A stretch of DNA of 64,000 bases from NCBI GenBank assembly GCA_035362935.1, contig DAOSEC010000003.1:26859-90858 (forward strand). Direction: 5' to 3'. Below the pieces are notes generated by a model. That model saw only the letters and a program-made list of their open reading frames with translations, had not been told where the DNA came from and made no database searches. Shown in pieces: positions 48,725-48,752 of the stretch. Position 1 is the first letter of the stretch. Each line of letters opens with the position of its first letter. The translations under genes were made by a program, and so were the position numbers. The stretch is from Bacilli bacterium. Its GTDB lineage: Bacteria > Bacillota_I > Bacilli_A > ML615J-28 > CAG-313.

Positions 48725-48752
48725 ACTTCCTATAATTTATATTATGTAAACT
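48725..48752. other. dif: dif chromosome-dimer resolution site (XerC/XerD target)
   Basis: ACTTCCTATAATTTATATTATGTAAACT, against the B. subtilis dif as I recall it (ACTTCCTAGAATATATATTATGTAAACT): 26 of 28 identical. It lies at the convergent switch of gene orientation, with xerD 2.6 kb away. Confidence 0.85.

Follow-up and report, generated by a model that had tools for sequence, protein, structure and literature searches.

A probable chromosomal dif site at a replichore junction in an uncultured lineage of low-GC Bacillota

The closest described counterpart of the site considered here is the dif site of Bacillus subtilis (Bsdif), whose recombinases are CodV (XerC) and RipX (XerD) according to the work of Sciochetti et al. 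(2001) as it is cited in PMC3025954 and PMC5357621. Bsdif is made up of two 11-bp half-sites flanking a 6-bp central region, and CodV prefers the left arm and RipX the right, more conserved half (PMC5357621). Its experimentally confirmed sequence is given as ACTTCCTAGAATATATATTATGTAAACT (Kono et al., 2011; PMC3025954). Further dif sites have been predicted in other Firmicutes (Le Bourgeois et al., 2007, PMC1914069; Kono et al., 2011, PMC3025954). In descriptions of the classical systems, xerC and xerD are remote from dif (PMC1914069), with xerD in most cases close to the origin (PMC3025954). Bacillota rely on a translocase partner of the SpoIIIE/SftA type (PMC5357621), and E. coli on FtsK. In two further systems, difSL/XerS of streptococci and difH/XerH of epsilon-proteobacteria, the recombinase gene is linked to the terminus site.

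A 28-bp sequence in a 64-kb stretch of DNA (the window, meaning the whole stretch that was analysed) is very probably the chromosomal dif of a low-GC Bacillota organism, lying at the junction of its replichores (Table 1). Like Bsdif, it is divided into 11 + 6 + 11 bp and sits in a non-coding terminus stretch where strand bias switches, in DNA that encodes a RipX/XerD orthologue. It is identical to Bsdif at 26 of 28 positions (right arm 11/11, left arm 10/11), the two changes being G to T at position 9 and A to T at position 13, so that the centre reads TTTATA rather than TATATA. Half-sites were assigned following the layout in PMC5357621; the two 11-bp arms are imperfectly symmetric around the 6-bp centre and retain the inner ATAA...TTAT dyad. 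The first-pass annotation of this DNA had counted two differences from B. subtilis dif in 28 positions and noted that the core of the XerD arm was kept; the count is exact against the reference sequence in PMC3025954, and the whole right half-site is identical. In contrast to B. subtilis, the window shows no recognisable RTP/Ter fork trap.

Similarities extend to other known systems. Firmicutes dif sites have been predicted from their resemblance to Bsdif, their single occurrence and their location at a compositional switch (PMC1914069; PMC3025954). The present one shares the resemblance and the location, and it occurs once in the 64 kb covered here; its host belongs to an uncultured lineage known from metagenome contigs. 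The E. coli dif (GGTGCGCATAA TGTATA TTATGTTAAAT) has the same architecture, with the inner arm bases and the right arm conserved and a homologous XerD (1A0P). However, the outer bases of the left arm are unrelated. The window contains neither the E. coli KOPS motif GGGNAGGG nor the octamer GAGAAGGG that SpoIIIE of B. subtilis recognises (SRS). The linkage of a recombinase gene to the site recalls difSL/XerS and difH/XerH, but the site is of the 28-bp Bsdif type and not a 31-bp difSL, and the gene lies 2.6 kb away and not adjacent to it. This distance also separates the locus from the classical systems, with their distant xer genes (PMC1914069).

Table 1. Features of the dif locus and of the strand-composition switch, in window coordinates.
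Feature	Position	Strand	Remarks
dif site, 28 bp	48725-48752	+	ACTTCCTATAATTTATATTATGTAAACT
dif left half-site (XerC/CodV-type)	48725-48735	+	ACTTCCTATAA
dif central region	48736-48741	+	TTTATA
dif right half-site (XerD/RipX-type)	48742-48752	+	TTATGTAAACT
Flank block A	48764-48776	+	AAGGTAAAACGCC, +12 to +24 from XerD arm
Flank block B	48800-48808	+	TGTTGATAA, about +48 to +56 from XerD arm
Non-coding gap, 816 bp	48373-49188	.	between 3' ends of two convergent genes; switch of orientation and strand composition
Fido-fold protein gene	46457-47578	+	overlaps start of PHP phosphatase gene
PHP-family phosphatase gene	47578-48372	+	left neighbour of gap
Terminator-like hairpin and T-tract	48371-48397	+	closes last + operon (Fido-like protein, PHP phosphatase)
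Terminator-like hairpin and T-tract	49144-49177	-	closes last - operon (hydrolase gene and genes upstream)
Alpha/beta-hydrolase gene	49189-50118	-	right neighbour of gap
xerD (XerD/RipX-type tyrosine recombinase)	51309-52226	-	NCBIfam XerD equivalog TIGR02225, 363.8 bits (cut-off 329.6)
End of one replichore (inferred)	1-48372	+	genes co-oriented with inferred fork direction; GC skew +0.064, AT skew +0.056
End of other replichore (inferred)	49189-64000	-	all genes on -; GC skew -0.075, AT skew -0.056
Cumulative G-C skew maximum	48484		base resolution
Cumulative A-T skew maximum	48680		base resolution
Cumulative purine skew maximum	48669		base resolution
Cumulative keto skew minimum	48776		base resolution

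The 28-mer is the sole match to itself in the 64-kb window with 3 mismatches permitted, and at that tolerance it found no match in 100 dinucleotide-preserving shuffles. A position weight matrix (PSSM) made from 15 dif sequences, with a reporting level of 8 bits, gave a single hit in the window, the same 28 bp, at 41 bits. Window uniqueness, the empty shuffles, the 26/28 identity and this score together exclude a chance match to dif. The several equally good copies that the first-pass annotation had named as grounds for dropping the site are thus missing from the 64 kb by both the mismatch and the matrix scan. Two other candidates were assigned to chance: the next-best one in the window, considered as a second or degenerate dif (IMEX scar), which has 6/22 arm mismatches and scores below 8 bits, and a palindromic pseudo-site at 48944-48971, found with direct repeat D2, which also remains below 8 bits.

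Left of the gap, the credible genes lie on the + strand with one exception at 28185-29696 (-), and every gene to the right lies on the - strand, in agreement with the flip and the single left-hand exception reported earlier. The four compositional extrema (range 48484-48776) fall within 250 bp of dif, close to the 48.7 kb at which a skew extremum had been anticipated, and the observed skew excess was reached in 0 of 10,000 permutations of 1-kb blocks of the window. As evidence for fork direction, skew does not stand apart from gene orientation, since nearly all genes are co-oriented and the lone reverse gene, at 28-30 kb, shows reversed skew. For the same reason the strand polarity of GAAGAAG, which is 17:2 to the left of dif and 0:6 to the right (23:2 overall), is confounded with the coding strand and uninformative. 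The lone reverse gene, whose product is a secreted endonuclease I carrying Big_3 domains, adjoins a low-GC stretch (about 31% at 29-32 kb) with DUF898 and an uncharacterised ORF, and the segment 28185-31220 as a whole may be acquired DNA.

The gap that holds the site is the longest stretch of the window without an ORF of at least 100 aa, as the first-pass annotation had described, and the intrinsic-terminator-like hairpins of both convergent genes face it. None of the small ORFs within it is conserved in relatives. A search for structured RNA in the gap returned nothing at Rfam gathering thresholds, the only match being a spurious SECIS element (E 0.29). When the gap was compared among relatives, dif and its XerD-side flank were conserved and nothing else. 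The convergent gap is long (0.75-2.2 kb) and non-coding in every lineage compared (the window and L089-L101).

Relatives of the locus were collected as contigs encoding homologues of the two genes that flank the gap, which gave 12 further non-redundant lineages with flanking proteins 35-73% identical. All 12 carry a single dif variant in constant orientation in the convergent gap that immediately follows the PHP gene, with 1-7 mismatches and PSSM scores of 33-46 bits, and no other hit exceeds 8 bits in any of these loci. Furthermore, each pairwise comparison of intergenic gaps had dif as its top-scoring match. Across the clade the consensus reads ACTTCCTATAAT ATATAT TATGTTAAC(T/C). On the left-arm side the relatives encode a 342-373-aa (Fido-like) protein and the PHP phosphatase, preceded by PAP2, pseudouridine synthase, miaA, mutL and mutS or else by parE/parC, and on the right-arm side the order is hydrolase-deoB-xerD-hemW-lepA. 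Most of the 12 lineages keep the full gene order; L091, L097 and L098 retain the PHP side only. Converging polarity of skew and orientation at dif is seen in 11 of the 13 related lineages (window included). One of them, L091, is the complete chromosome CP076020.1 (1,648,168 bp), with dif at about 815,775, 49.5% of the way along the record, which agrees with a site opposite the origin provided that the first base of the record is close to oriC. Not every relative shows the synteny: L087, L088 and L100 have a flanking gene with no adjacent dif.

Several further properties of these neighbourhoods were noted. The Fido-fold protein (46457-47578) is without a Pfam family but resembles the Fido-domain structure PDB 8UQU (E 3.7e-13); its Fic motif is degenerate, KPFTEHNELAS aligning to HPFPDGNGRMS of 8UQU, and its C-terminus is winged-helix-like. 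Most of the 13 lineages, though not L091 and L097, have an orthologue adjoining the PHP gene. The topoisomerase IV genes parE and parC stand immediately upstream of the Fido-like/PHP pair in L092, L093 and L100, and in L092 and L093 they thereby come to lie beside dif. Spore genes are present in some relatives, and homologues sharing 41-45% identity carry the labels Bacilli, Tenericutes, Mycoplasmatota, Izemoplasmatales or Firmicutes bacterium.

The same 28-mer also occurs far outside this clade. An exact copy is present once per fetched 8-kb locus in 77 other Bacillota species (GTDB representatives), mainly Lysinibacillus, Planococcus, Kurthia and Sporosarcina with some Bacillaceae. BLASTN aligns the window with these loci over some 31-36 bp centred on the 28-mer and nowhere else, so that dif forms an island of conservation in otherwise unrelated DNA. 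The loci were oriented by the site and compared where at least 1 kb was available on either side. GC skew was higher on the left than on the right in 63 of 63 (means +0.096 vs -0.095; Wilcoxon p = 5e-12), which places the 28-mer at a converging skew switch wherever it was examined. The central region of the window site, TTTATA, is that of the 77 distant species and unlike that of its closest relatives, which have TATATA or TGTATA and a T at position 24. Therefore, the exact identity with Planococcaceae sites is probably convergent, to judge from these sequences, with an independent change at position 13, which fits weak constraint on the sequence of the central region. Sequences resembling the dif core (82-97% identical) are also carried by plasmids and phages of Firmicutes and others, with 339 Firmicutes plasmid records (208 from Enterococcus, 79 from Bacillus, 25 from Priestia) and 43 phage records, several microviruses among them; these fit plasmid multimer resolution and Xer-dependent integration. 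Because such 28-mers are found on plasmids and phages, the motif by itself is no proof of a chromosomal terminus and its context is needed.

The context weighs heavily on the question of whether the 28-mer could be a resolution or integration site of a plasmid, phage or IMEX and not a chromosomal dif, a reading for which the similar sites of Enterococcus, Bacillus and Priestia plasmids and of some phages, including microviruses, could be quoted. The window is rich in single-copy housekeeping genes (valS, folC, radC, pyruvate phosphate dikinase, the L21-Prp-L27 operon with rpmA, and obg, together with mutS, mutL, miaA, typA, lepA, hemW, speE, speD and NAD synthase), which marks it as chromosome and not plasmid. 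No second dif-like site is available to bracket an insert, and the gap is without ORFs, whereas an IMEX junction has two sites bracketing inserted genes. In distant relatives the flanking DNA is likewise chromosomal and syntenic, and the synteny across the junction is kept in lineages whose proteins are 35-73% identical. Six independent metagenome contigs (JGI, ENA, Logan) match the window across the junction at 99.99-100% identity, so the junction is not an assembly artefact. The assembly artefact or plasmid that the first-pass annotation had set out as ways for its claim to fail have therefore not materialised, and a mobile-element origin of the site is exceedingly improbable. A different doubt accepts the dif as genuine but takes the switch for a local rearrangement boundary, with termination elsewhere, for example at a distant fork trap. 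Such a separation has a precedent, as dif and the Ter/RTP sites of B. subtilis are separate and termination at dif is not obligatory (PMC13220808; PMC3025954), and the skew of the window is inseparable from its gene orientation. Nevertheless, this is a very improbable account, given that all four compositional extrema coincide with the site to within 250 bp, that the arrangement is kept in at least 10 lineages and all 63 unrelated loci, and that the orthologous site lies almost midway along the complete chromosome (taking its record to start near oriC). Moreover, none of the window proteins was recognised as RTP- or Tus-like.

The remaining alternative concerns the enzymes. The 28-mer would be a genuine Xer target but belong to a single-recombinase module, in which the linked XerD-like enzyme alone acts on both arms as in XerS/difSL or XerH/difH. 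The location of xerD gives this reading its appeal. The gene lies 2,557 bp from dif, in agreement with the 2.6 kb given by the first-pass annotation, with two genes between, and it stays within about 2.3-3 kb of dif, in the order hemW-xerD-deoB-hydrolase-dif, in the window and in L089, L090, L092-L096, L099 and L101, a linkage that spans lineages with proteins just 35-73% identical and differs from the classical distance of the xer genes (PMC1914069; PMC3025954). In addition, no xerC was found in the 64-kb window, although 64 kb is a small fraction of the genome and the absence says little. Against a lone enzyme, the arms are clearly distinct and near-identical to the CodV and RipX half-sites of Bsdif. 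The protein passes the XerD equivalog cut-off, falls below the cut-off on the XerC model and reaches 118 bits on the XerS model (cut-off 267; ORF 51309-52232, -). Its best match among solved structures is E. coli XerD (1A0P; E 1.4e-63), with the HxxR and H...Y catalytic motifs aligned, and XerH is a far weaker structural relative. The start codon is uncertain: gene callers give 289 or 305 aa, and the longest ORF reaches 52232. Furthermore, XerS and XerH modules abut their sites, in contrast to the two intervening genes here. A difSL/XerS module was rejected on its Bsdif-like 28-bp site, its XerS score and this spacing, and a single-recombinase system in general is very improbable.

A chromosomal dif served by two recombinases thus remains the preferred reading, and the analogy with B. 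subtilis suggests how it would operate. A XerC/CodV-type recombinase would bind the left 11-bp arm, and the XerD/RipX-type recombinase encoded 2.6 kb away would bind the right. When homologous recombination fuses sister chromosomes into a dimer, translocases of the FtsK/SpoIIIE family would help to bring the two copies of dif together at the closing septum, and both recombinases would exchange strands sequentially across the 6-bp TTTATA to restore monomers. The replication forks would converge within or very near the 816-bp gap. Comparative position and the compositional data, at their resolution, favour the earlier proposal of a replication terminus within the window; this is support and not proof, as dif and the point of fork fusion need not coincide.

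The dif site is not the only conserved element of the gap. A flank of about 56 bp beside the XerD arm (48753-48810) is ungapped and partly conserved, with L089, L090, L084, L094-L099 and L101 aligning at matching offsets. Clade conservation is 0.54 bits per column in this flank, as compared to 0.34 in the XerC-side flank and 1.56 in dif itself. An AAGGTAA..GCC-like block A stands at an identical ungapped offset in about 9 of the 13 lineages. Block B, whose reverse complement TTATCAACA is 1 mismatch from the DnaA box TTATCCACA, has the clade form TGT[TG]GA[TA]AA (TGTKGATAA) at a nearly fixed distance, and the perfect TGTGGATAA occurs in L091 and L094. Ten 300-bp regions around dif contain the motif GT[TG]GATAA 10 times in total as compared to 0.56 expected, with 9 of 10 on the same strand, although these lineages do not represent independent samples. 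No such motif stands near dif in the 77 Planococcaceae/Bacillaceae loci. The idea of a DnaA-box cluster or titration locus was judged unlikely, as the seven 9-mers are scattered and form no cluster. Plasmid Xer sites of the cer/psi type carry some 180-200 bp of accessory sequences beside the core. Such a site was also set aside here, since the context is one of housekeeping genes and the flank of about 56 bp is chromosomal and without known accessory-protein motifs.

It is conceivable, though doubtful, that the clade dif is the core of a larger conserved terminus module, comprising the accessory element of about 56 bp, the linked xerD and the adjacent Fido/PHP pair, and that the element binds a factor controlling Xer recombination, fork fusion or SMC unloading. 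Candidate factors could be DnaA, extra XerD as at the XDS sites of B. subtilis, or the neighbouring winged-helix protein. Extra XerD half-sites of the XDS kind are not enriched in the window, where the right arm at up to 2 mismatches has 41 hits as compared to 47 expected. Should they prove functional, the flank and the linkage of xerD to dif would suggest that Xer recombination or the organisation of the terminus is under accessory control in a little-studied lineage. The conserved flank, the xerD linkage, the long gap and the Fido-fold neighbour are leads at this stage and not findings.

As dif and XerCD at the terminus are established across Bacillota, the locus offers no new principle. The first-pass annotation had likewise called it known biology that explains the architecture of the whole window and is missed by gene finders, and we concur. 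The dif fixes the replichore boundary of this genome and thereby accounts for the gene-strand and skew architecture of the window. It could also help to annotate genomes, to orient and close those assembled from metagenomes, and to estimate growth rates from ori/ter read depth.

Other features of the window deserve brief mention. Four independent metagenome assemblies (L080-L083) stop exactly at 43952, inside the GMN-motif-coding part of corA (43072-44082); these shared contig ends probably reflect assembly-graph branching among co-occurring strains or species and not a biological junction. Three RNA elements score above their Rfam gathering thresholds, namely a T-box leader (16748-16970, +) upstream of valS, a ribosomal protein L21 leader (31324-31398, +) preceding the L21-Prp-L27 operon, and a TPP riboswitch (59348-59443, -) upstream of a gene for a ThiT-like (Thia_YuaJ) transporter. 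At the right-hand end of the window, a gene for an RsgI-like anti-sigma factor (57642-58673, -) adjoins a huge surface-protein gene (59530-64000, -) that runs out of the window. In near-identical contigs this surface protein is 1784-1789 aa long and has dockerin, weak cohesin, Listeria-Bacteroides repeat and SBP_bac_5 domains.
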